From Dictyostelium discoideum (lineage: Eukaryota): DNA of 64,000 nucleotides. The notes beneath the pieces were generated by a model that worked only from the letters and a program-made list of their open reading frames with translations, ran no database searches and was not told where the DNA came from. Location: assembly GCA_000004695.1 (NCBI GenBank), contig CM000153.2, positions 2,432,001 through 2,496,000 on the forward strand. Direction: 5' to 3'. Positions 2,675 through 59,196 of the stretch are shown here, in pieces. How positions within the stretch are numbered: position 1 is the first letter of the stretch; every line of letters starts with the position of its first letter. A program made the position numbers and the translations under genes.

Positions 2675-3038
2675 AAAAAAAGCAAAAAATGATAATGATC
2701 AAAACGTTTTGTTTTTTTTTAATTTTTATTTTTAAATTTTTATTTTTTTTTAATTTTAAATCTTTAAAAATCTTCGGCACCAAAAATGAACTGTTTGACT
2801 TTCTTATTTTAAAAAATAAAAAAAAAAAAAAAAAAATTATTATTATTTCGAAAATAAACAGGGGTGTTAATTTTTTATTTATTTATATATTTATTTATTT
2901 ATTTTCCCCCATTCCAATAAATGTAACCAAGAAAAAAAAGAATAAAAAATTTCAAAATATATTTATTTATTTTTATTTTTATTTTTATTTTTATTTTAAT
3001 CTTTTATTTTCAATCAAACAAAAAAAAAATAATTATTT

Positions 3039-3694
3039 TTAGGTTGATTCTTGAATATATTTATTCTTTTCTTCATCAGTAATTTTTGATTGTTCATCAT
3101 AATTTGTTGGAATGATTGATTGTGAGATTTTAAGGAATTCAGAGAGTGGACACATACCGTCTACTTCTTTATCTTTACATGGTCCAATATGAATTGGTTT
3201 ATGATTAAAGATAACTTTAACATATTGATGATTGATTAATTCCTTTTCATTTGATTTTGTGACAACTTCTGGTTCTTTATAGTTTTTATCTTGGAATAAA
3301 AGATATTCCAAAGCTGATGAAGTCACTGGATGAACATTATCTTCATACATATCATAAGCCACCAATAATGCTGCCAATGTAGTATCGTGACCTGAATATA
3401 ATGAAAGTTTTAAATCTTTTACTGATGGATCATTAACAGACTTTAAATACATTTGTTTTGTTAAATCATTAACGAATCTACCAATACCCAATATTGACAT
3501 CTCTGGGAATAATCTTGCACTCTTAAATTCTTTTGCACTCTCTTCATACATTCTTTGAATAACATCATTTGTAAATCCTTTTGGTAATGGTAAACCATTA
3601 TTTCTAAAACAATCAAATGAATTCACTAATCCTGCATATGATCTCCAACTTGGTACATAAAACTAACAATTGTAATAAATATTAATATATAAAT

Positions 3695-3735
<41 letters not shown>

Positions 3736-4644
3736 AAATTTTATTTACTTACAGCAGTATCAAATTTGCTATCTTCAAAAATATTTTTAATCTTTTCAGT
3801 AAATTCTTTTAAATTACTCTTTTCATTTTCTTCAATTACAGCTTTATGTTTTTTTAATAAACCTTTTAAAAAATTCTTTTTTTTTTTTAAAATTATTATA
3901 TAAAAAAAAAAAAAAATTATTATTATTATAATTTTCTTTATATATTAAAATAAATAATAAAAAACATACATATTTTGGAGAAGATCTTGGATACATATTT
4001 TCATCTTTTTCATCTAAAATTAAGAAAGAAGAATGATTTGGTGATTTTTCTTGATCATCAGCAAAAGAACCACCATAAAGACCATGCATGAAAGATCTAG
4101 CACTTGAGATTGTTCTTTCACGATTTGAAGATCTAATAAAGATTTGATCTTTATTATATTTATTATCAAGGAAATGAAGATTATTAATGAATAGATTTCT
4201 ATAAGCTTTACCAACATTAATTTGATCTACAATACCGAGTACAGTTAATTGACCCATATTACAATCTGGTCTTGAAGTATCTTTATTTGTAATTAATTGA
4301 TCCAATGAATTACAAGTCCACATTGTTAATGGATATCTCTTTGATTCTGGTGTTCTTCTACCATGTCTTGTAATGATTTGAACAAATTTCAATTGGTAAT
4401 TCTCTGGATTATATTCATCTATTGGTACTTTAGTTGATCTTAATGCTAAAAATTTAAAATTTGGATCTGTATGTTGATTCTTAAAATCTTCTTCTTTTAC
4501 AAGTGTTTGAAGGTAATCATTAATTTCAATTGAATTCTCTTTATTATTATCATTATTGTTTATATTGTTTTTTAAATTAATATTTGGATTTTCATCTAAT
4601 TTAACAGTACCAACTATTGAATTTAATAAAAAATTAATTATCAT
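3039..4644 (-). CDS. Histidine acid phosphatase family protein, copy 2 (3 exons: 3970..4644, 3753..3875, 3039..3662; about 473 aa)
   Basis: ITRHGRRTPES in exon 1 and LYSGHDTTLAALL in the last exon. The region that is split by intron 1 in copy 1 (…TISSAR|SFMHGLYGG…) is continuous here. The two remaining introns sit at positions homologous to copy 1 introns 2 and 3 (GTATGT and GTAAGT donors). The 3' exon is about 97% identical in nucleotides to copy 1. Confidence 0.7.
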
Positions 4645-5112
4645 TTTCTTTTTTTTTTTTTTTTTCTCCTCTAAAAAAATTATTTATTTAGTGAAAAAAA
4701 TACTATTACACCTTTTTTTAAAAAAATAAAAACAATAAAAAAAAAAAAAAAAATAAAAAATAACAACTTCACAAAAAAAAAAAAATTTAAATTAAAAAAA
4801 AAATAAATAGAAAAATAAAAAAAAAAAAAAAAATGAAATTAATGTTCGGGAATGAAATAAATGTCCGAATTAAGATTTTTTTGAACAATAAAGGTCTGAA
4901 ACTGTTTATCGATGAACAGCACAAAAAACACCGACTTTTTTTTTTTTTTTAAATTAAATAATTTTTTATTTTTATTTTTATTTTTTTTAGAATGCAAGCC
5001 ATAAATAGTTTTTTTTTATTTTAGAATGCAAATTATATTAATAGTTTTTTTTTTTTTTTATTTTTAAAAAGGAGAAAAGATAGATGTTTATGAAAAAAAA
5101 ATATATTTCTAT

Positions 5113-5157
<45 letters not shown>

Positions 5158-5161
<4 letters not shown>

Positions 5162-7674
5162 CTTAATGGACATAAAGAACCATAATGAAATTCAGCATAA
5201 TGAGATAATAATAAAACTTTATCATTTAAAATTTTAGATGGAATGATTTCAATGAAAAAGTTACTTTGACTTTCAACAGAAGAGATGATTGAAATCTTTG
5301 AACCAAAATGTTCAGCAGCAGCCAAGAGAGTTAAATGATCACCCCAATTTCCATTCTTTGACATATCGTTACAATAGTCATCCCAATTATTAGTATTTAC
5401 AAATTGACAAATGGTAGCACCATTTGGAAGTTGAAAATCTTTATTCTTTCTTAACCAATCGACAATTGTTTTTCTAACTTCTTGAGAATGAGATAAATCA
5501 CCATACAACTGATCGGATAAAGCATGCATTTGACAATTGCCATCACCTGGTATCTCTTTACTATTCTTTAGCATATAAAGTTCCAAACGTTCATTCAAAC
5601 GTTGTTGAGCGATTTGCACCTCTTTTGATTGTGGTAATGGATGAAGATTCAATAAAACATTTGAACTAATCAATGAAGCATCATGATTCATATTCTTTAA
5701 TACTAAACCCTCCAATAATAAATTAGTTTTAATTTCACTATACTGATCTTGAACATGTCCTCCAACAATATGTGGTGATGATGAATTACTTTGTTGTTGC
5801 TGTTGTTGTTGCTTTCTTTGTTTATTTAAACGATCATCTTCTTCAATTCTTTTCTTTTTCTCTTCTTCAATTGATTTCATAATATCAACATACCAAGATT
5901 TTGAATGATAATGAGCAATATCTTCATCCAATTGAATCATTGCAGCAGCTGTTACCCTATCAGTAGCTTCATTAATGAAATATTGGATCCAAATTTGAGC
6001 CTTCTCTTCTTGATTCAATAGACAACATGTTTTTGCATAGATTAACCAAATTGTGGAATCGGAGATTGGGACATCCGATAAAGCTCTTGAAAGTTGATCA
6101 TTTGAAAGACTAAGATAATGTAAGAGATATTTGTAGAGATCATCTTTAATTTGTGGTTTCTGTGTGACGAATCTAGCAGAGGTCACTTGGTGATCGGATT
6201 GAATGATCTTAAAGTAAGAATAGCAGAAACAGCCTAAATTATACTTATACTTTGTCTCTGATGTGCATTTCATAACGGTTCGAAAGAGATTATCATAGAT
6301 AGTTTCAAATATTTTATATTTCAATTGTTTGGTTACCTCCTCCCCAATATACCAAAAGTAGCCTCTACCAGTTAACATTGAGAATAGAGTTTGAGTAAAG
6401 AATACCAAACCATTTGATGAAATATCACTAGTTTCAAAATAATCTTTCAATTGTTTAATATTTTCAAATTGTTGATTAAAATAAATAATTATTGGATTAT
6501 TATTTTTTTGTGATGATAAAACTGTTGAATTTGTAATTGACATTGACATAGTGTTGTTGTTGTTGTTGTTATTACGGTTATCTAGTTGTTGTTGAAATAT
6601 TTTTGCCAACATTTCAATCATAAATTTTGATTTTACAGTCATTAAATTGATTTGTTTAGCAAATGATGGATCGACTTGTGACAATTTCATCAATACTAAT
6701 ATTGAGGCTAAACCACTAAGATGATATTGAATAATATCAACCTTTGTAAAGAACTCTGGTGGTTTATAAACCTCTGGTGTTAATGTGAATGGTAATGATG
6801 ATGTATGAATATTTCTATTGTTTTGTAATTTCAATAAAATTGTATTACATTCTTTTGCTATTGGTAATTGAGCATTATTAAATGTAATATTATCTTGTCC
6901 AACATGATTCGTTGTAAATTTATCAAATTTATCTTTAATTTTATTTAAAATATTTTGAAAAGTTTGTTCCATTGTAAATTGTTGAGTTTGTTGTGGTTGT
7001 GGTTGTGCCATATTTGGTTGTTGCTGTATAGTTTGTGGTGGTTGTTGTTGCTGTTGTTGTACTGTATTTGGTTGTTGTTGTTGTTGTACTATAAGTGGCT
7101 GTTGCTGGTATATTACGTTTGGTGGTTGTTGTTGTAGTTGATTTTGTTGTAGTTGTTGTTGTTGTTGTGCTAATGGAAGTTGATTAACATATATGTATCG
7201 TATTGGGAGTGGTTGTAATATTGATGAAATATTTGGTTGGTATGGTTGTGGAATATGTTGGTATGGTTGTTGATTTGATGCTGTTGTTGGTATATTACCA
7301 CTATATTGCTGCTGAGCTAAAAAAGATGTTGGAGATGTTGGGTTTTGTGTTTGTTGTTGTTGTTGTAGTTGTTGTTGTTGTTGCTGTTGTTGTTGTTGTG
7401 CTAATTGAATATATGATGGTGGAGATTGTACATTTACCTTTATTTTTTTTATTTTTTTGTTTATTATTTGTTATTATTTTTATTATTTGTTATTTTTATT
7501 ATTATTTATTAGAATAGGGTATGGTTAATAAAAATAATAATAATAATAATAATAATGAAAGACTTTTAATTTTACAATAAAATAAAATTATGGTGAATTG
7601 CTAGCAATAGTTCACGCTACACACACACACATCTAGTTCTTTAAAATACTTACAAAGTTTGCAGAGTGAGACAT
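5158..7674 (-). CDS. OTU-domain cysteine protease (deubiquitinase-like) with a poly-Gln-rich N-terminal half (2 exons: 7654..7674, 5158..7437; about 766 aa)
   Basis: The C-terminus has the OTU catalytic motif [18 protein letters not shown] and a His-containing tail (HYAEFHYGS). The long ORF is open, with no stop and no ATG, upstream of the listed Met through a CAA-rich segment up to about 7437. A 21-nt first exon ATGTCTCACTCTGCAAACTTT followed by GTAAGT lies at 7654-7674. An …ataaag acceptor at 7438-7439 joins it in phase 0. Confidence 0.55.
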
Positions 7675-9717
7675 GGTGTGTTGTGAAAATAAATGAAAAA
7701 GATAATAATGAATGAAAAAAAAAATAAATAAATAAATAAATAAAAAATAAAATAAAAAAAAAAAAAAAAAACTGTGTGTGAAATTAATTAGATTATTTTT
7801 TTATTTTATTTTTATTATTTTTTTTTTTATAAATAAATTTTAATATAAAAAAAAAAAATAATAATAATAATATCTAAAAGAGTTTTTTTAATTTGATATT
7901 ATTTATTTATTATTTATTTATTTATAAAAAATAAATTATAGTGGAAAAAAAAAGGTCTGTTTTTTTTTTTTTTTTTTTTTTTTTTCTTACTATTTTTTTT
8001 TTAAATTTTTAGGGCAATTTAAATTTTAATTTATTTTTATTTTAATTTTTTTTTAAATTTTAATTTTTTTTTTTAATTTTTTTTTTTAATTTTTTTAAGT
8101 TTTTTTTCTCAAACAATGACAACCCAAGGATTTATTTTAATGTTAATCATGATGGAAGAATTAAATTAAACAAGAAATATTTCTTAGTAATGAATACACC
8201 AAACTTGGTAAGATGTTTGAAAATAAAACCTAAAAAAAAAAAAAAATCTAAAAAAAAAGATCTATTAATAAAAAATCTTAAAAAATAATCTTTTTACTCG
8301 AAAAAATAAAAATAATTTACATATTTCAATATTGGTTAACACAATGGTATATATATATCTAGAAATTAAATTGAATATATAATTAAAAAAAAAAAAATAA
8401 AAAAAAAAAAAAATAAAATAAAATAAAATAAAAAAATAAATAAATAATAAAATAAAATTAATTAAGTATTTTTTTAAAACTTCAATTATTTTAATTTTTA
8501 AAATGTCTTTTTTTCATGGCCAATTTTGTTTAATAATTTTTAATATTAAATTGTAGTTTTAAGTAATTAAACAATAATTTTTTTTTTTGTTTTTTTTTTT
8601 TCCCTTAAATTCCAATGATACCATTTTTAAAATTAAAATTGGTGGTTGTGGTTATTGGGGGGAGAATTAAGAAATTAGCAATAAACAAGATTACTTGTTT
8701 ATTATTAAATCGCAATCAATTAATAATAACTTGCCTTTTCTTATTAGATACGATTATAATATGTTTAAAAATTCAAAACTTTTTAATTTTAAATTTAATT
8801 TTTTTTGACTAGAGATTTCTTGTAAAAGATAAATTCTTATTATGAAAATCTCTATTAATGTACTCAATATTATGAAATTTAATTTAACATTACAATTTAT
8901 TATTAAAAAAAAATAAAAAAATAAAAATAAAATAATTTTAAAAAATAAAAATAATTTAAAAGATTATAGTAATTTTTATTTTTTTAAATTTAATATGAAG
9001 TTCGATTTGATTTGATTTGGTTTTTTTATTTTAATATATTATTTTTATTATTTTTATTATTTTTTTATTATTTTTTTTTTATTTATTTTTTTTTTTTCAA
9101 TGAAATGAATCTTAAAATATTAATTTTAAAAATAATTATTATTGTTATTGATAATATTATATATAATTATATAAATATATATATATTTTAACCTTCATCA
9201 ATATCCAACCATTAACGGAAAGACACAGACCTTTCTTAAAATTTTATAACTTTCCTTCTTCGTTAAAGGAAAAAAAAAAATTTAATTTTTTTGTTTTTTT
9301 TTAATTTTTTTTTTTTTTTTTTTATTCCAATTTTGATATTCTATTTTTAATTTTATCAAAAAATAAAATTATATTAGCAAATAATAAAAATAATAATAAA
9401 AAAAAAAAAAAAAAAAAAAAAAGATAAAATTTAAAAAAAATGGGGGTTGGAAAAAATTAGGAAAAAAACCAATTGGGATGTTTTTGAGATAGAAATTTTT
9501 GTAAATCTAGTTTTGATTCTTTTATCTCGATAATATGAGATTATCATCATTGAAAAATATTTTATTGGAATATTAAAAACATAGAGTAACACAAACGGAA
9601 TCATGTATATTTTTCTTTTTTTGTTTTATTTGTGTATATTTATATAATTTTTTTAATTTTTTTAATTTTTTTTTATTTTTTTTTATTTTTTATTTTTGAC
9701 AAAATTGGTTGATACTC

Positions 9718-18677: not shown

Positions 18678-19292
18678 TTAATTAATGCAAGTTGCTTTAT
18701 ATTGAGCATCAAAACATGTAGTTAAATGGTTTGTATTACAGGAATTAGAATTATCACCACAAATTGTGATGTATGGAATTCCTTCTACACAAGTAAATTC
18801 TTGAGTTGAACTTTGATTATCATAATCAACTGTTGTACCATTTGTTACAAAAGTAAAGTTTTGATAATTATCAATACTACATGGGTCACCAAAACTACCA
18901 GATTTACTCCATACATTAAATTGTAATGAATTTTTTGGTAAATCAGCATTCAATTCAACTAAATAATAACCTTTAAAATAGGTTGAATATTGGCATGTAT
19001 TAAAATTGAATATCTCTGTAACATAAGGTTTTCCATTTGAACCAAGTACGCTCATCTTGAGTTGATCACTTTTTGTTGATTCAGAGAAATCTAAAAGGTC
19101 ATAAAAATTTCCAAAAACTTGAATTAAATTTGAATTCATAGATGTCAATTCTGGCATATAACCATAACCAATACCACCACCAACTTGAGTGCATTTTGAA
19201 TCTCTGAATGGAGTTAATACAATTGTTTCATTTTTTGAAAAAACTGAGTTAATTGAAAAGATTAAAAATATAATTGAAAATAAGAGTTTCAT
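18678..19292 (-). CDS. Small secreted Cys-containing protein of unknown function (single exon, 204 aa)
   Basis: ATG-initiated. N-terminal signal peptide MKLLFSIIFLIFSINSVFS. 12 Cys. Flanked by poly-A/T spacers. No recognisable domain. Confidence 0.5.
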   Translation of the reverse strand: MKLLFSIIFLIFSINSVFSKNETIVLTPFRDSKCTQVGGGIGYGYMPELTSMNSNLIQVFGNFYDLLDFSESTKSDQLKMSVLGSNGKPYVTEIFNFNTCQYSTYFKGYYLVELNADLPKNSLQFNVWSKSGSFGDPCSIDNYQNFTFVTNGTTVDYDNQSSTQEFTCVEGIPYITICGDNSNSCNTNHLTTCFDAQYKATCIN

Positions 19293-20497
19293 TATTTTTT
19301 TTATTTTTTTTTTATTTACTACTTCAAAATGAGCAAGATTTTGAAAGATGGTGGTAAAAAAAAAAAAAAAAAAATTTAATTTATACTAATAAAAAAAAAA
19401 AATAAAATAAAATAATAAGGGATGGTTTTCAAAATTGATTGATATTTTTTTTTTTTCTTCACACTATTTTTTTTTCAAAAAAAAAATCTTTAGAACGTTT
19501 TTGTACAATGGAACAAAATTTTAATTTATTTTTTTTTTTTTTTTTTTTTGGTTTTGAATTAATATCTTTTTTTTTTAATTTTTTTTTCCACAAAAAATCT
19601 TATTTTCAAAGAAAAAATGACCAAGTGTTTTATTTTATTTTTATTTTTTTAGAATCTGGATTAATTCCAAAATAATAACAGTTTGGAATCCACCCAGATG
19701 ACATGGAATGAAGATATTTATAATAATTGGTTCAAAAATATTTTCGTTTGACTTTTTTTATAACTTTTTTTTTTTATTTTTTTATTTGTAGTATTTAAAA
19801 AATAAACAACTTATAATAATAAAATTTTTTTTTTTAAATAATCTAAATGAAAAAATTGTTAGAAAAAAAAAAAAAAAAAAAAAAAAATAAAGAATATTAT
19901 AAATTAACAAAAACAATTATATTTTTATTTTTGTTTTTATTTTTTGTTATGTTTTTTGACAAACCAATTATGGTTTTTATTTTTGTTTTTATTTTTGTTA
20001 TGTTTTTTATTTTAGTAATACCTTTATTTTATTTGTTTTTTTTTTATTTTTTTTTTTTATTTAATATTTTTTTATTTTGTCCTTTTTGATACCAGGAAAT
20101 TAAGATTAATTGTCAATAGATCTTGAATATTTTATATTCAAAAAATTAATCTTCGAAGGTGCCTTATATTTTCAGAAAATTTAAAAGTTGGATAGGCTCC
20201 GTCTTTTTAAGGTTTTAATGAGGAATAAAGCATTTCTGTACTTTTGTATTTTTCATATTCAGCCGTGCTATCATAAAGTCCTTCATATGAGGCACAATAA
20301 TTAAAATCATACTGGAAATTCATATTTTTTTTGCTTTTCCCCAAGGTGTAATTTTTTTTATTTTTATTTTCACTTTTGCCGCGCTGTTTTTTTTTTTTTT
20401 TTTTATTTCAGATATTTTTATTTTCAATTGTTTTATTTTTATTTTAACTTTTAACGCACTGTTTTTTTTTTTATTTTTTTTTTTTATAAATAAAAAG

Positions 20498-20978
20498 ATG
20501 AAATATGGGGTTAAATATGAAATTGATCAATCTATTCCAAACGATTTGCCTGATTTTCCATTTATAGATGAAAAAGATTATCCATCTGAACGATGGGAAA
20601 TTACACTAAAAGATCAAGACACAATAATATTTTCTTTTAATTTTCTTTATGTTTGTATTTTATATTGAAAACAAAAAATATATCAATTAAAAATAAAATG
20701 TCAAAATTATTAATAATAATAATAATACCATTTGAAACAATAATTAGATTGGGAAATTTTTAAATGAAATTAAGAGATATTGTAAAAACAGAATAATTAC
20801 TTTTGAAACAAACATTCCAAAAGAAAATAATTTTTATTTATTATATCATTTTATTATTTGGAAAAATAAAAATAATTGGTGTGAAGATTCCAAGGTTTTA
20901 ATCTTTAAAAACTCAATGATATTTATTTTTTGTGAAACTCGAATTAAAATTGATATTGATAATAATGAAATTATAATT
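20498..20978 (+). CDS. Possible 5' coding exons (20498..20650 and 20748..20978) that could splice into the OLD-family gene via an acceptor at 21065
   Basis: ATG at 20498 is preceded by TATAAATAAAAAG. Exon A (51 codons) ends at a GTTTGT donor. An …aattag acceptor gives a phase-0 77-codon exon B ending at a perfect ATT|GTAAGT donor at 20979. The only frame-compatible acceptor into the 21105 ORF is …tattaaag| at 21065. The alternative is that these are unrelated ORFs and the gene starts at 21105. Confidence 0.3.
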
Positions 20979-21009
20979 GTAAGTTATTAATAACAAAAAA
21001 AAAAAAAAA

Positions 21010-21046
<37 letters not shown>

Positions 21047-21104
21047 AACTTTTTTAGTATTAAAGAAAAGTAATCCAAAAACAGATACAACTTTAGAATT
21101 AAAA

Positions 21105-22910
21105 ATGAGTAAATTTTTAGAAAATTTAAAAGAAAAACCATTGCAAGTAAAAAATTATTATTATTTTTTCACAATACTTTCTAAAGTTTCAAACTCTGTA
21201 CTTATTAATGATGATGGTTTCGATATTTGGATTTATTCATTAGAGTATCCATTATTTATAATTGCAAAGAATGGTACAGGTAAAACTAGATTTTTAAAAA
21301 AGGTTTTCACAAACTCTGGGATTCTTAAATGTAAACAATCAATTTATTTGAATGAATTTATGGTTTTATCATTTAGTAATGGCGTAAATAATGAAGAGGT
21401 TAAATTCTTTGAAGAGTTTTTAAATGTTTATAAAGCACATTCGATGTTATCAACTCTAAATAATAAAGGATTCTTAACGAAATATATATGGAATTCAATT
21501 AATGAGGTATTAAAATCGAATAATTTACCTTTCTCATTATTACCATCGGATTTAAAGAGTGATAGATTATTATTTAAAATGGATGATGTAACACTTTATT
21601 ACCATGATTTATCATCCGGTGAAAAAACATTATTTATAGTGTTTGCTTTAATTGTATTCTATCAAGATAATTATTCAGGTATTGCTGATGAAGAAGTTTT
21701 GTTATTATTAGATGAAATTGAAACAACATTGCATGCTCAATCATTAAGAGTTTTATTTAATGCAATTCATAAACAAAGAAATAATTTGAAAATTATAATG
21801 TCAACTCATAATTCAACATCATTAAGAATTGCATCAGAGTATGGTTTTCATTATTATTTATTAGAGAAATCTTTAACCATATCGGATGGAAATTCTGTAA
21901 AAATTAAAGAATTAAAATCACATGAAAATGCAATTAGCTATGTTAGTGATGGAATGTTATCAGTTGTAGATAGTTCAAAACTTGTATTTGTTGAAGACGA
22001 CGATGATAGTAAATTCTATGAAATTGCATATAAAAAACTATTTAATTATCCACACACAACTAGATTAGTATTTTGTAATGCTGGTATAAAAAATAATAGT
22101 CAACATGATCTTAATCAAGTATCATTAATATTAAAGAAAATGGATGGAAATGATGAAAATGTCAAATCCATTCAAAAATTAATTAATACCCTAAAAGAAA
22201 CAAATACAATCGGTGGTAAAACATCAGTTAAAGAAAAGGTTAAATTACTATCTGAAAAATCAGTTACTGAAGAATCATTCAGATTAGGTAATTCTCAAAT
22301 CATTGGTTTATTAGATAAAGATGATGGTAAAAATGAAGGTGAATTTTTAATAACAATTGATTACTATAGTTATGAGATGTTTTTATGTTCTCCTTTAGTA
22401 TTATTTTATATGATAAAAAATGAATTTTTAAAAACATCTCCAGATTCACATTTATCAACAATAACAACAACAACACCATCATCACAAGAAATAAATACAA
22501 ATTTATCACAACAAGATATGGTTTGTTTTGTTATTGAAAAGTTAATTGAAAAAGAAGTTGAAACTAAAAATAGAGAAACAAATAAAACTTGGAAAGAATA
22601 TTTGGATATTTTTTATGAAGGTATACGTTCAACAACATTGTTTGATGTAAAATTAGAAAACCAAGCAATAATCAAAGTACCTGAAATTTTTATAAATGGA
22701 TTTGGTAAAAAAGGAAAAGGTCATAATCTCTTTGATACTTTGGTTAGAATATTTGCATTTGGATTAAATATGCAAGAATCCACTGAAAAATTAAAAATAA
22801 AAACACTTGAAGCTTTTGAAAAAATGTCAACTGATAATATTCCATCATGTTTAAGAGATACATTTTTAAAAGTAATGAATTACTCTTTAAAAAAAATTAC
22901 AAATAATAAC

Positions 22911-22944
<34 letters not shown>

Positions 22945-22955
22945 TAAAAAATTAA
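21105..22955 (+). CDS. OLD-family (overcoming lysogenization defect)-like nuclease: ABC-type ATPase N-terminal domain + C-terminal TOPRIM domain (616 aa in this exon)
   Basis: Walker A IIAKNGTGKTRFL. ABC signature HDLSSGEKTLF. Walker B/D-loop VLLLLDEIETTLHAQ (compare OLD DEPExHLHP). H-loop MSTHNST. TOPRIM motifs KLVFVEDDDDSKFYEIAY (conserved Glu) and IIGLLDKDDG (DxD). Confidence 0.7.
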
Positions 22956-37558: not shown

Positions 37559-39892
<2,334 letters not shown>

Positions 39893-57742: not shown

Positions 57743-59196
57743 TTAATTATGGTTTTTAGAATTGATTAGATTTAATAATTCAGTGTCCCAATTTAATAGT
57801 TTTGATAGGTTGAGAACTGATTCTTGACAATCACCAATCATTTTGAAATCAAAATTTTTATTATTATTAAAATTGAAACCACCAAAACTATTTTCACCAA
57901 CAATTTGATTATTTATTAATAATCTTGGGATATTTTTAAAATGAGGAAAGAAATGAACCATTGATGCAATTGGTTGAACTTTTAAAGAGGTACCAATCAC
58001 AATTAGACAATCACATCTATTAATATCGTCAAGTATATTTTGATTAAATATTGGTGGTAAAGATTCACCAAAGAAAACAATATCAGGTTTAATTACAGCA
58101 TTATTACATTGAACCACTTTACAACGTGGTACAACACTTTTCAAAGGATCATTATTGAAAATTGAATCTTTAATATATTCTTGAGAATATTCTAAACCAC
58201 AATTTGTACATCTTGAAACTGCAAAAGAACCATGAGCTTCAATTAATTTATCCAATGGTATACCAGCTATTCTTTCAAGTGTGTCAGCATTTTGTGCATA
58301 ATTCCTTAACAGTAATCCTTTATCTGATAAAAGTTTAATAAAATAATGAACTGGTGTACATTTAAATTTACCCGATGGGTAGAGGTCTTTTGAAAGTTGA
58401 TAAAATGGTTCAGGATTGAATTTAAAATAATCAATATCAAACACTGCCTCTTTAAATGGTAATTTAAATTTTGAAACATTTTCATTATTATATAAACCAG
58501 TTTCAACTGATCTAAAATCTGGTATACCACTCGCAACTGAAATTCCAGCTCCTGTCAATACAATAATATTCTTACATTTATCATTTTTAATTAATTTTAT
58601 AAATTCTTTAATTTTATTATTTTCAATTTCAATTTCATTTTCAATTTTAATTTCATTTTTAATGATATTACTATTCTTTATAATATCTTTAATTGAATTA
58701 TCAATTGAGTCGAAATTTTTATTATATTTTAAATTTCTTTGATCATAATAAATGAATAATTTCATTACTTTGAATAAATTTTCAATATCTTTTAATTTTT
58801 TATTTATTAAATCACTATTTTTGGTGCATTTTTCAATCATTGTTGATTCTTTAATTAATTCATTACAATCATTACACCATAATGTTTTATCATCACCATG
58901 AAATATTTTAAAAATTGAATGATTGGAATGTAATTTACAATCTTCCATACAAACAACAATTCCACATTCTAAACAAATTAAAATATTATCTTGACTTGAA
59001 CATTTATAACAATTTGGTATTGTTACTTTTTTTTTTTTTTTTTTTTTTTTTGTTAATTAACAAAAATTTTATTGATTTTTAAATTAAAATATTAATAATA
59101 TAACTTACTATTTTCATTATCATATAATTGAATATCAATTGATTCATAATTTATATTACAATTTTCAATATGTACACATTGTGTTTGTTTTGACAT
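57743..59196 (-). CDS. Sir2-family NAD-dependent deacetylase (sirtuin) with an N-terminal ZnF-UBP-like zinc finger (2 exons: 59109..59196, 57743..59025; about 456 aa)
   Basis: Sirtuin motifs IIVLTGAGISVASGIPDFRS, QNADTLE, HGSFAVSRCTNCGLEY, CKVVQC…IKPDIVFFGE. Upstream in the same frame is CYKCSSQDNILICLECGIVVCMEDCKLHSNHS…WCNDC (C-x2-C…[LI]-x-C-L-x-C-G ZnF-UBP pattern). Exon 1 MSKQTQCVHIENCNINYESIDIQLYDNEN + A|GTAAGT. The acceptor …aaaag| is phase 1. Confidence 0.7.

Follow-up and report, generated by a model that had tools for sequence, protein, structure and literature searches.

PARIS and other OLD-like ATPase-nucleases are known as defence systems of prokaryotes and phage satellites. PARIS consists of an AAA_15/AAA_21 ATPase and a DUF4435 protein, encoded either by two genes or by a single fusion (Rousset et al., 2022, PMC9122126), and it is cited in PMC11464382 as 'OLD class 4' of the scheme of Dot et al. 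(2023). In this system AriB is kept sequestered by AriA until the trigger protein Ocr binds to AriA, which depends on ATP; once released, AriB cuts host tRNA (PMC11464382). A preprint that describes OLD-like genes in aquatic eukaryotes (Maaroufi 2026, bioRxiv 10.64898/2026.08.18.745644) states that OLD had not been known in eukaryotes before. Here we describe a gene of the amoeba Dictyostelium discoideum at positions 20498-22955 (plus strand) of a 64,000-nucleotide (nt) stretch of contig CM000153.2 (positions 2,432,001 to 2,496,000), which we refer to as the window. Its intact 616-amino acid (aa) open reading frame (ORF), at 21105-22955 on the plus strand, very probably encodes a single-chain PARIS-type protein in which an AriA-like ABC ATPase is fused to an AriB-like TOPRIM domain, as judged from sequence comparison and structural models.

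A literature search turned up no earlier description of PARIS-type genes in eukaryotes, and the papers it returned on defence-system homologues in eukaryotes, as well as a study of horizontal gene transfer in Dictyostelium, mention neither PARIS nor OLD. The OLD-like genes of aquatic eukaryotes resemble the Dictyostelium gene in being prokaryote-type ABC ATPase-TOPRIM defence genes that reside in a eukaryote and carry introns. They were compared with class 1 OLD and GajA, and come from SAR, Filasterea, chytrids and invertebrates; Amoebozoa, PARIS and DUF4435 go unmentioned in that preprint. A PARIS-type single-chain gene in D. discoideum would extend the list of bacterial immune modules found in eukaryotes.

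Relationship to single-chain AriAB proteins

The original prediction had recognised an OLD-family nuclease of the class 1 OLD or Gabija GajA kind from a set of ATPase and TOPRIM motifs in the 616-aa ORF, and every one of those motifs is present at the place it had given. The features of the two halves are as follows, with residues numbered in the 616-aa ORF.

21222-21890, plus strand: ABC ATPase domain of AAA_21/AAA_15 type, from Pfam, PADLOC AriA, PDB profile matches, Foldseek and alignment
21264-21287, plus strand: Walker A, AKNGTGKT, residues 54-61
21609-21626, plus strand: ABC signature, LSSGEK, residues 169-174
21699-21734, plus strand: Walker B and D-loop, LLLLDEIETTLH, residues 199-210
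21801-21812, plus strand: H-loop, STHN, residues 233-236
21957-22889, plus strand: predicted TOPRIM/DUF4435-like (AriB-like) nuclease domain and C-terminal helical region
Residues 293-301, plus strand: TOPRIM Glu motif, LVFVEDDDD, with E297 at 21993-21995 and D301 at 22005-22007
22080-22289, plus strand: helical insertion between the TOPRIM Glu and DxD strands, flanked by conserved LVFxxxGxK and N-x-x-GG-x-x-x-V
Residues 402-408, plus strand: DxD motif, LLDKDDG, with D404-x-D406 at 22314-22322
Residues 421-424, plus strand: additional S-x-E motif (YSYE), with S422-x-E424 at 22368-22376
22902-22940, plus strand: poly-Asn tail, a low-complexity tract of host type

The ATPase half scores above the Pfam gathering thresholds for both AAA_21 (37.6 bits) and AAA_15 (32.7 bits), and the protein passes the detection rule for PARIS ATPases (AAA_15 of at least 32 bits or AAA_21 of at least 27 bits). 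Among PADLOC models, AriA is the best match (3.5e-10), with GajA matching over a partial stretch only (1.7e-4). When the window protein alone was searched against PDB sequences it returned only noise. The family profile retrieved AriA (8ux9_B, 5.5e-11) along with the retron Ec83 and PtuA ATPases, retron PtuA and PtuA both more strongly than AriA, as well as Rad50 and SMC; the OLD protein TsOLD was matched only at 1e-5, around Walker B. A Foldseek search with a full-length AlphaFold2 (AF2) model (mean predicted local distance difference test, pLDDT, 72.6) recovered the same ATPases. Two other identities, which the original prediction had set against its own, were considered and rejected. For SMC/Rad50/RecN proteins, only about 108 aa separate the motifs, there is no long coiled coil, and SMC_N reaches 24.5 bits against a gathering score of 40; for an ABC transporter nucleotide-binding domain, PF00005 gives no match to the window protein, and the C-terminal half is a TOPRIM domain.

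The spacing between Walker A and the signature, about 108 aa here, is 145-280 aa in the relatives, and most of their insertion or coiled-coil region is therefore absent; the AF2 model places two short helices between the motifs. This is the region of the ATPase in which AriA has the insertion sequences that have been linked to binding of the trigger and to assembly (PMC11464382).

In the nuclease half, the family alignment shows no variation at E297, D301, D404, D406, S422 and E424. Set against the AriB residues as published (E26, D30, D88, E90, E122; PMC11464382), the E-x3-D and D-x-[DE] spacings agree and the last one differs, at 18 compared with 32. The AF2 model forms the insertion as helices at residues 333-344 and 351-365. 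When the nuclease half was compared with known structures by Foldseek, its top two matches were AriB chains. In contrast, the OLD-like TOPRIM family PF20469, proposed in the original prediction as a confirming profile, matched neither the whole protein nor its C-terminal half at E<=1.

The wider family connects the protein to PARIS more firmly. A word-indexed search had missed members of its own query alignment (3 matches with a single sequence and 22 with the alignment), and relatives were therefore collected with an exhaustive phmmer search, which returned 443. We tested 75 ordinary relatives of 570-700 aa, that is, relatives outside the amoeba and endosymbiont subclade described below. AAA_21 and AAA_15 are found in all 75, DUF4435 in 20 (E<=1e-3, best 6.3e-10) and PF20469 in none. 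The PADLOC AriAB model matches 74 of the 75 (at 1e-10 or better, best 1.7e-36), with matches that extend through the nuclease half. It also matches the relative P0003 at 8.9e-28 and the subclade members P0013, P0014, P0024 and P0154 at 1e-9 to 1e-15. A C-terminal profile built from the subclade only aligns to the ordinary relatives in hhalign with a probability of 100% (E=8.8e-40, 246 columns). From the AriAB and DUF4435 matches of the relatives, this profile alignment and the invariant acidic residues, we infer that the Dictyostelium protein descends from fused AriAB proteins and, by analogy, would act in a like mode.

Several results weigh against so specific a placement. The two AriB fold matches have TM-scores of only about 0.35, and confidence in the AF2 models is moderate (pLDDT 73-74). 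The C-terminal half scores 14.3 bits against DUF4435 (PF14491; E=0.035), below the threshold of 27 bits, and the PADLOC AriAB model (PDLC02981) does not match the window protein. Nor did the C-terminal profile find AriB, or anything else, among PDB sequences, so that within the PDB the link of the nuclease domain to AriB comes only from fold comparison. Finally, the PADLOC model 'ATPase-Toprim_I-B', a retron effector, matches all 75 ordinary relatives nearly as well as AriAB does, and the boundary that sets PARIS apart from retron-type OLD-like proteins is therefore blurred. By strict profile thresholds the protein is a divergent outlier of the fused AriAB proteins and no textbook member.

Compared feature by feature, the Dictyostelium protein shares with PARIS the order of its domains, with an AAA_21/AAA_15 ATPase ahead of a TOPRIM domain to which AriB is the closest solved structure, the acidic residues in the arrangement E-x3-D, D-x-D and S-x-E, and a one-polypeptide layout that also occurs in bacteria. 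It differs in being encoded by a eukaryotic gene with introns, in falling below the DUF4435 and AriAB thresholds, in a region between Walker A and signature that is about 100-170 aa shorter than that of relatives, in an extra helical TOPRIM insertion of about 45 aa and in some 140 aa of new sequence at the N-terminus. The retron ATPase-TOPRIM proteins (Ec83, Ec78/Eco7, Eco8) and Septu PtuA provide the best sequence and fold matches of the ATPase half. Unlike those systems, however, this gene has no reverse transcriptase, non-coding RNA or HNH partner, its relatives are best described by the AriAB model, and its nuclease is closest to AriB.

Gene model and residence in the host genome

The window as a whole is about 20% GC, and with stops expected at a rate of 0.095 per codon a 616-codon frame would stay open by chance with P of about 1.6e-27. 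The two upstream exons suggested in the original prediction fit the data: a three-exon model spanning 20498-22955 is in frame and yields a 757-aa product, and both introns agree with those annotated in the orthologue of D. cf. discoideum. The long exon begins at 21066, rather than coinciding with the 616-aa ORF as had been proposed.

20498-20650, plus strand: putative exon 1, 51 codons (MKYGVKYE...), colinear with the first exon annotated for the orthologue in D. cf. discoideum (P0012)
20651-20747, plus strand: intron 1, 97 nt, GTTTGT...TTAG, 12% GC, with a non-consensus donor
20748-20978, plus strand: exon 2, 77 codons, part of the N-terminal extension specific to dictyostelids, containing a weak internal repeat
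20979-21065, plus strand: intron 2, 87 nt, GTAAGT...AAAG, 8% GC, phase 0
21066-22955, plus strand: exon 3, 629 codons and a stop, holding the 616-aa ORF that starts at 21105

Intron 2 has three independent supports: the D. cf. discoideum annotation; a 650-aa (2039-nt) gene call in GCA_054883475.1, a second D. discoideum assembly 99.96% identical across the locus, which initiates at the exon 2 Met and implies this intron; and an intron of the D. purpureum orthologue that corresponds in both position and phase. It also has the GTAAGT donor that had been predicted for both introns, whereas intron 1 starts with GTTTGT. The acceptor of intron 1, ATAATTAG, is identical in D. cf. discoideum, where the donor reads GTTAGT. 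Exon 1 is unused in the 650-aa gene call. Given the non-consensus donor and the shared acceptor, a start codon at 20498 is plausible and no more. The product is 757 aa long, or 650 aa with a start in exon 2, or 616 aa from the Met at 21105. The element TATAAATA (20485-20492), noted in the original prediction together with the start, ends 5 nt before the ATG at 20498, too near to act as the TATA box of a transcript that starts upstream of that ATG.

About 140 residues, from exons 1 and 2 and the start of exon 3, make up the dictyostelid-specific N-terminal extension, which resembles the N-terminus of the D. purpureum protein weakly (E about 1e-3) and in which Pfam finds nothing. The weak repeat apparent in exons 1 and 2 (20498-20978) takes the form W-x-[EI]...[IF]F[ST]F. 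The middle of exon 1 is strongly divergent between D. discoideum AX4 and D. cf. discoideum, and its ends are conserved.

Exons are 17-26% GC and introns 8-12%, the GC content of third codon positions (GC3) is 0.12, like that of neighbouring genes, and three Dictyostelium assemblies have the locus flanked by the same pair of host genes. This is a resident, host-adapted D. discoideum gene, and the earlier view that its composition matches the host and marks it as no contaminant is borne out. The flanking genes compared were a CfaA-like gene and, downstream, AASS. As had been noted before, no helicase partner lies nearby: none was found among the window's ORFs of at least 250 aa, which is weak evidence, as adjacency is not expected in a eukaryote. 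No second copy of the gene was found in the window.

Neither the 616-aa ORF nor the 757-aa model had an exact match in protein look-ups. A neighbouring ORF (18678-19292, minus strand) is identical to DDB_G0284765 (XP_638392.1) by the same kind of look-up; a literature search on neighbouring DDB_G identifiers found nothing. Protein searches recovered this neighbour's product from five assemblies, and never recovered the 650-aa product of GCA_054883475.1 or the 451-aa product of D. cf. discoideum. These protein collections thus miss annotated products, and absence from them says nothing about the annotation status of the gene.

A subclade of amoebae and their intracellular bacteria

The nearest relatives of the protein include bacteria, in line with the prokaryotic kinship that had been predicted. 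They form a subclade with the following members.

D. purpureum XP_003285565 (P0010): orthologue, 41% identical, E=6e-95
D. purpureum XP_003284683: second paralogue
Polysphondylium violaceum KAF2074131
Willaertia magna KAL9642921: from a heterolobosean amoeba
Candidatus (Ca.) Amoebophilus asiaticus Aasi_0608: from an obligate amoeba symbiont
Ca. Jidaibacter acanthamoebae, two loci: from an obligate amoeba symbiont
Holosporaceae bacterium 'Namur': from an obligate amoeba symbiont
One EukProt protein and metagenomic sequences

The spacing between the TOPRIM Glu and DxD is 107 aa in the window protein and 124-142 aa in subclade members, compared with 60-77 aa in ordinary relatives; the greater length is due to the helical insertion, which is present in most of the subclade. 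Around the Willaertia, Polysphondylium and D. purpureum copies, which are carried on contigs of 43-399 kb, the genes are ordinary eukaryotic ones. Of the metagenomic members, one comes from a compact bacterial contig and a second from a contig with sparse coding. When 185,579 bacterial and archaeal species genomes were scanned with a pattern, the two best were a Ca. Amoebophilus species and Holosporaceae 'Namur'. In the symbiont relatives (Amoebophilus, Jidaibacter, Holosporaceae and several metagenomic sequences) the module forms part of giant proteins of 1200-2700 aa, and a Pfam search of the long additional regions of the bacterial proteins gave no match. Five of the giants (P0017, P0022, P0160, P0011 and P0046) carry repeated 'CG[LVI][FI]ALK'-like segments, which resemble cysteine protease or deubiquitinase effectors.

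Neighbour-joining (NJ) separates the subclade, with P0077 included, from ordinary AriAB-like proteins at 82% bootstrap and pairs D. discoideum with D. purpureum at 100%. Monophyly of the eukaryotic members receives 0%, as does monophyly of the dictyostelids. Earlier NJ trees, built from columns common to all 156 sequences, gave the exact subclade 28%, and 0% when P0077 was wrongly taken as an outgroup. P0077 (918 aa) has a short Walker A-signature spacing like that of the dictyostelids and lacks the TOPRIM insertion; in NJ it stands beside the dictyostelid pair with 26% support. The D. purpureum gene just upstream of P0010 (locus 2919-5320, 721 aa) carries a precomputed Pfam mark, PF26128 'Gad2', which was not reproduced in a Pfam scan of that neighbour's main 464-aa ORF (nothing at E<=0.01).

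We consider a horizontal-transfer origin of the gene probable. As the named members of the subclade are amoebae and obligate intracellular bacteria of amoebae, the gene most likely reached the dictyostelid lineage across the domain boundary, passed on by such bacteria or exchanged with them, when D. discoideum and D. purpureum had not yet diverged. Wild D. discoideum offer a route for this, as they carry Amoebophilus and Chlamydiae as endosymbionts (PMC8518690). After entry the gene would have gained its introns, its N-terminal extension and the composition of its host. Given the huge prokaryotic diversity of the wider family, the ultimate origin is most likely bacterial. Against this account, the phylogeny is by NJ only, placement within the subclade is weak, with the dictyostelid pair and P0077 near its base, and the subclade pattern fits several transfers between hosts and symbionts without establishing their direction. 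The transfer origin and the introns of the original prediction thus stand, together with its assignment to the OLD superfamily; the class it had named, class 1 OLD or GajA, is unsupported. A subclade whose named members are confined to amoebae and obligate intracellular bacteria would be a clean example of gene flow between hosts and symbionts.

Possible function and competing explanations

The mode of action of PARIS suggests how the fused protein might work. The ATPase half would be both the sensor and a safety catch that keeps the nuclease inactive. Binding of a foreign trigger, together with binding or hydrolysis of ATP, would free or re-orient the TOPRIM domain, whose putative two-metal site (E297, D301, D404, D406 and E424) would then cut nucleic acid. 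The substrate could be host tRNA, as in PARIS, or possibly DNA, as in OLD and GajA, and the outcome would be arrest of the infected cell. As most of the ATPase insertion region is absent and an N-terminal domain is new, the trigger-sensing surface of the dictyostelid protein probably differs. We regard this trigger-gated nuclease, acting in cell-autonomous defence, as a tentative proposal drawn by analogy. Two considerations count against it: we know of no virus of Dictyostelium, and to our knowledge the working of fused AriAB proteins is unstudied even in bacteria. Taken as a whole, the combination of PARIS-type identity, origin by transfer and a role in defence is the explanation that we favour, with moderate confidence. 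D. discoideum is tractable, with knockouts, natural endosymbionts and wild strains that hold intact and broken alleles, so that the gating of a fused AriAB protein and the target of its sensor could be tested directly in a eukaryotic cytoplasm.

The broken allele bears on the strongest competing explanation, that the gene is a decaying relic of horizontal transfer, its AX4 copy open yet useless or becoming a pseudogene. In D. cf. discoideum (GCA_054859205.1, locus 6001-8363) the syntenic orthologue is split into two annotated genes of 207 and 451 aa. A deletion of about 215 bp, corresponding to window positions 21517-21732, takes out the ABC signature together with Walker B, with two in-frame stops left behind, and there are frameshifts after Walker A and in a poly-Thr tract; this orthologue is a pseudogene. 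The ratio of nonsynonymous to synonymous substitution rates (dN/dS) between AX4 and D. cf. discoideum is 0.53 over the 375 alignable codons, compared with 0.07-0.14 for the flanking CfaA-like and AASS genes. Loss in this sister species and fast evolution are what would be expected of a dispensable conflict gene. They are equally compatible with a dispensable gene in decay, which tells against a defence function, and the non-consensus donor of intron 1 and the position of the D. purpureum copy, which is intact and not syntenic, point the same way. On the other hand, the AX4 frame is intact over 616 codons where about 1 codon in 10 would be a stop, all the catalytic and nucleotide-binding residues that are invariant in the family are kept, and the intact D. 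purpureum orthologue is 41% identical and shares an intron position. The high dN/dS, moreover, is partly due to the pseudogenised partner lineage. We consider a relic unlikely.

A bolder extension of the defence proposal takes the whole subclade as a weapon shared, and repeatedly exchanged, between both sides of an intracellular arms race. Amoebae of two eukaryotic supergroups would use a compact cytosolic PARIS-like sensor-nuclease against intracellular bacteria, viruses or mobile elements, and endosymbionts unrelated to one another (Bacteroidota, Rickettsiales and Holosporales) would deploy the same module within giant effectors. If true, a PARIS-type immune system would for the first time be seen at work in eukaryotes, and an immune module would have moved in both directions between domains of life. 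On present evidence this is speculative and unlikely.

Returning to the PARIS-type identity, the class proposed originally, an ATP-regulated nuclease that nicks or cleaves DNA in the manner of class 1 OLD or Gabija GajA, is disfavoured and in our judgement improbable. The ATPase and TOPRIM motifs place the protein in the same superfamily. In contrast to class 1 OLD (P2 Old, Thermus scotoductus OLD) and class 2/GajA proteins, however, it lacks PF20469 signal and a GajB-like helicase, its profile and structure scores against those classes are weaker, and the C-terminal helical region of its family is held in common with AriAB proteins.

A role other than host immunity seems to us similarly improbable. 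On this view the module may have originated in secreted effectors or toxins of intracellular bacteria, and amoebae would have kept it as a selfish element or a kind of toxin, or put it to use in the metabolism of RNA or DNA. The giant symbiont proteins of 1200-2700 aa, with their large extra regions and cysteine protease-like 'CG[LVI][FI]ALK' repeats, do resemble effectors of host interaction more than a compact phage-defence gene. Yet the giant extensions are without Pfam support and are absent from the amoebal copies, which have the compact form of bacterial AriAB, and the wider family functions in defence wherever it has been tested (PMC9122126, PMC11464382). Bacterial contamination or an assembly artefact, which would account for the closest non-dictyostelid relatives being bacterial or metagenomic, is refuted by spliceosomal introns with AT-rich interiors, GC3 equal to that of the host and the same locus in three independent assemblies.

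The other large ORFs of the window are ordinary eukaryotic genes, unrelated to the finding. They include an OTU cysteine protease (5158-7011, minus strand), a GT10 fucosyltransferase (37559-39892, plus strand) and a Sir2-family protein (57743-58948, minus strand).

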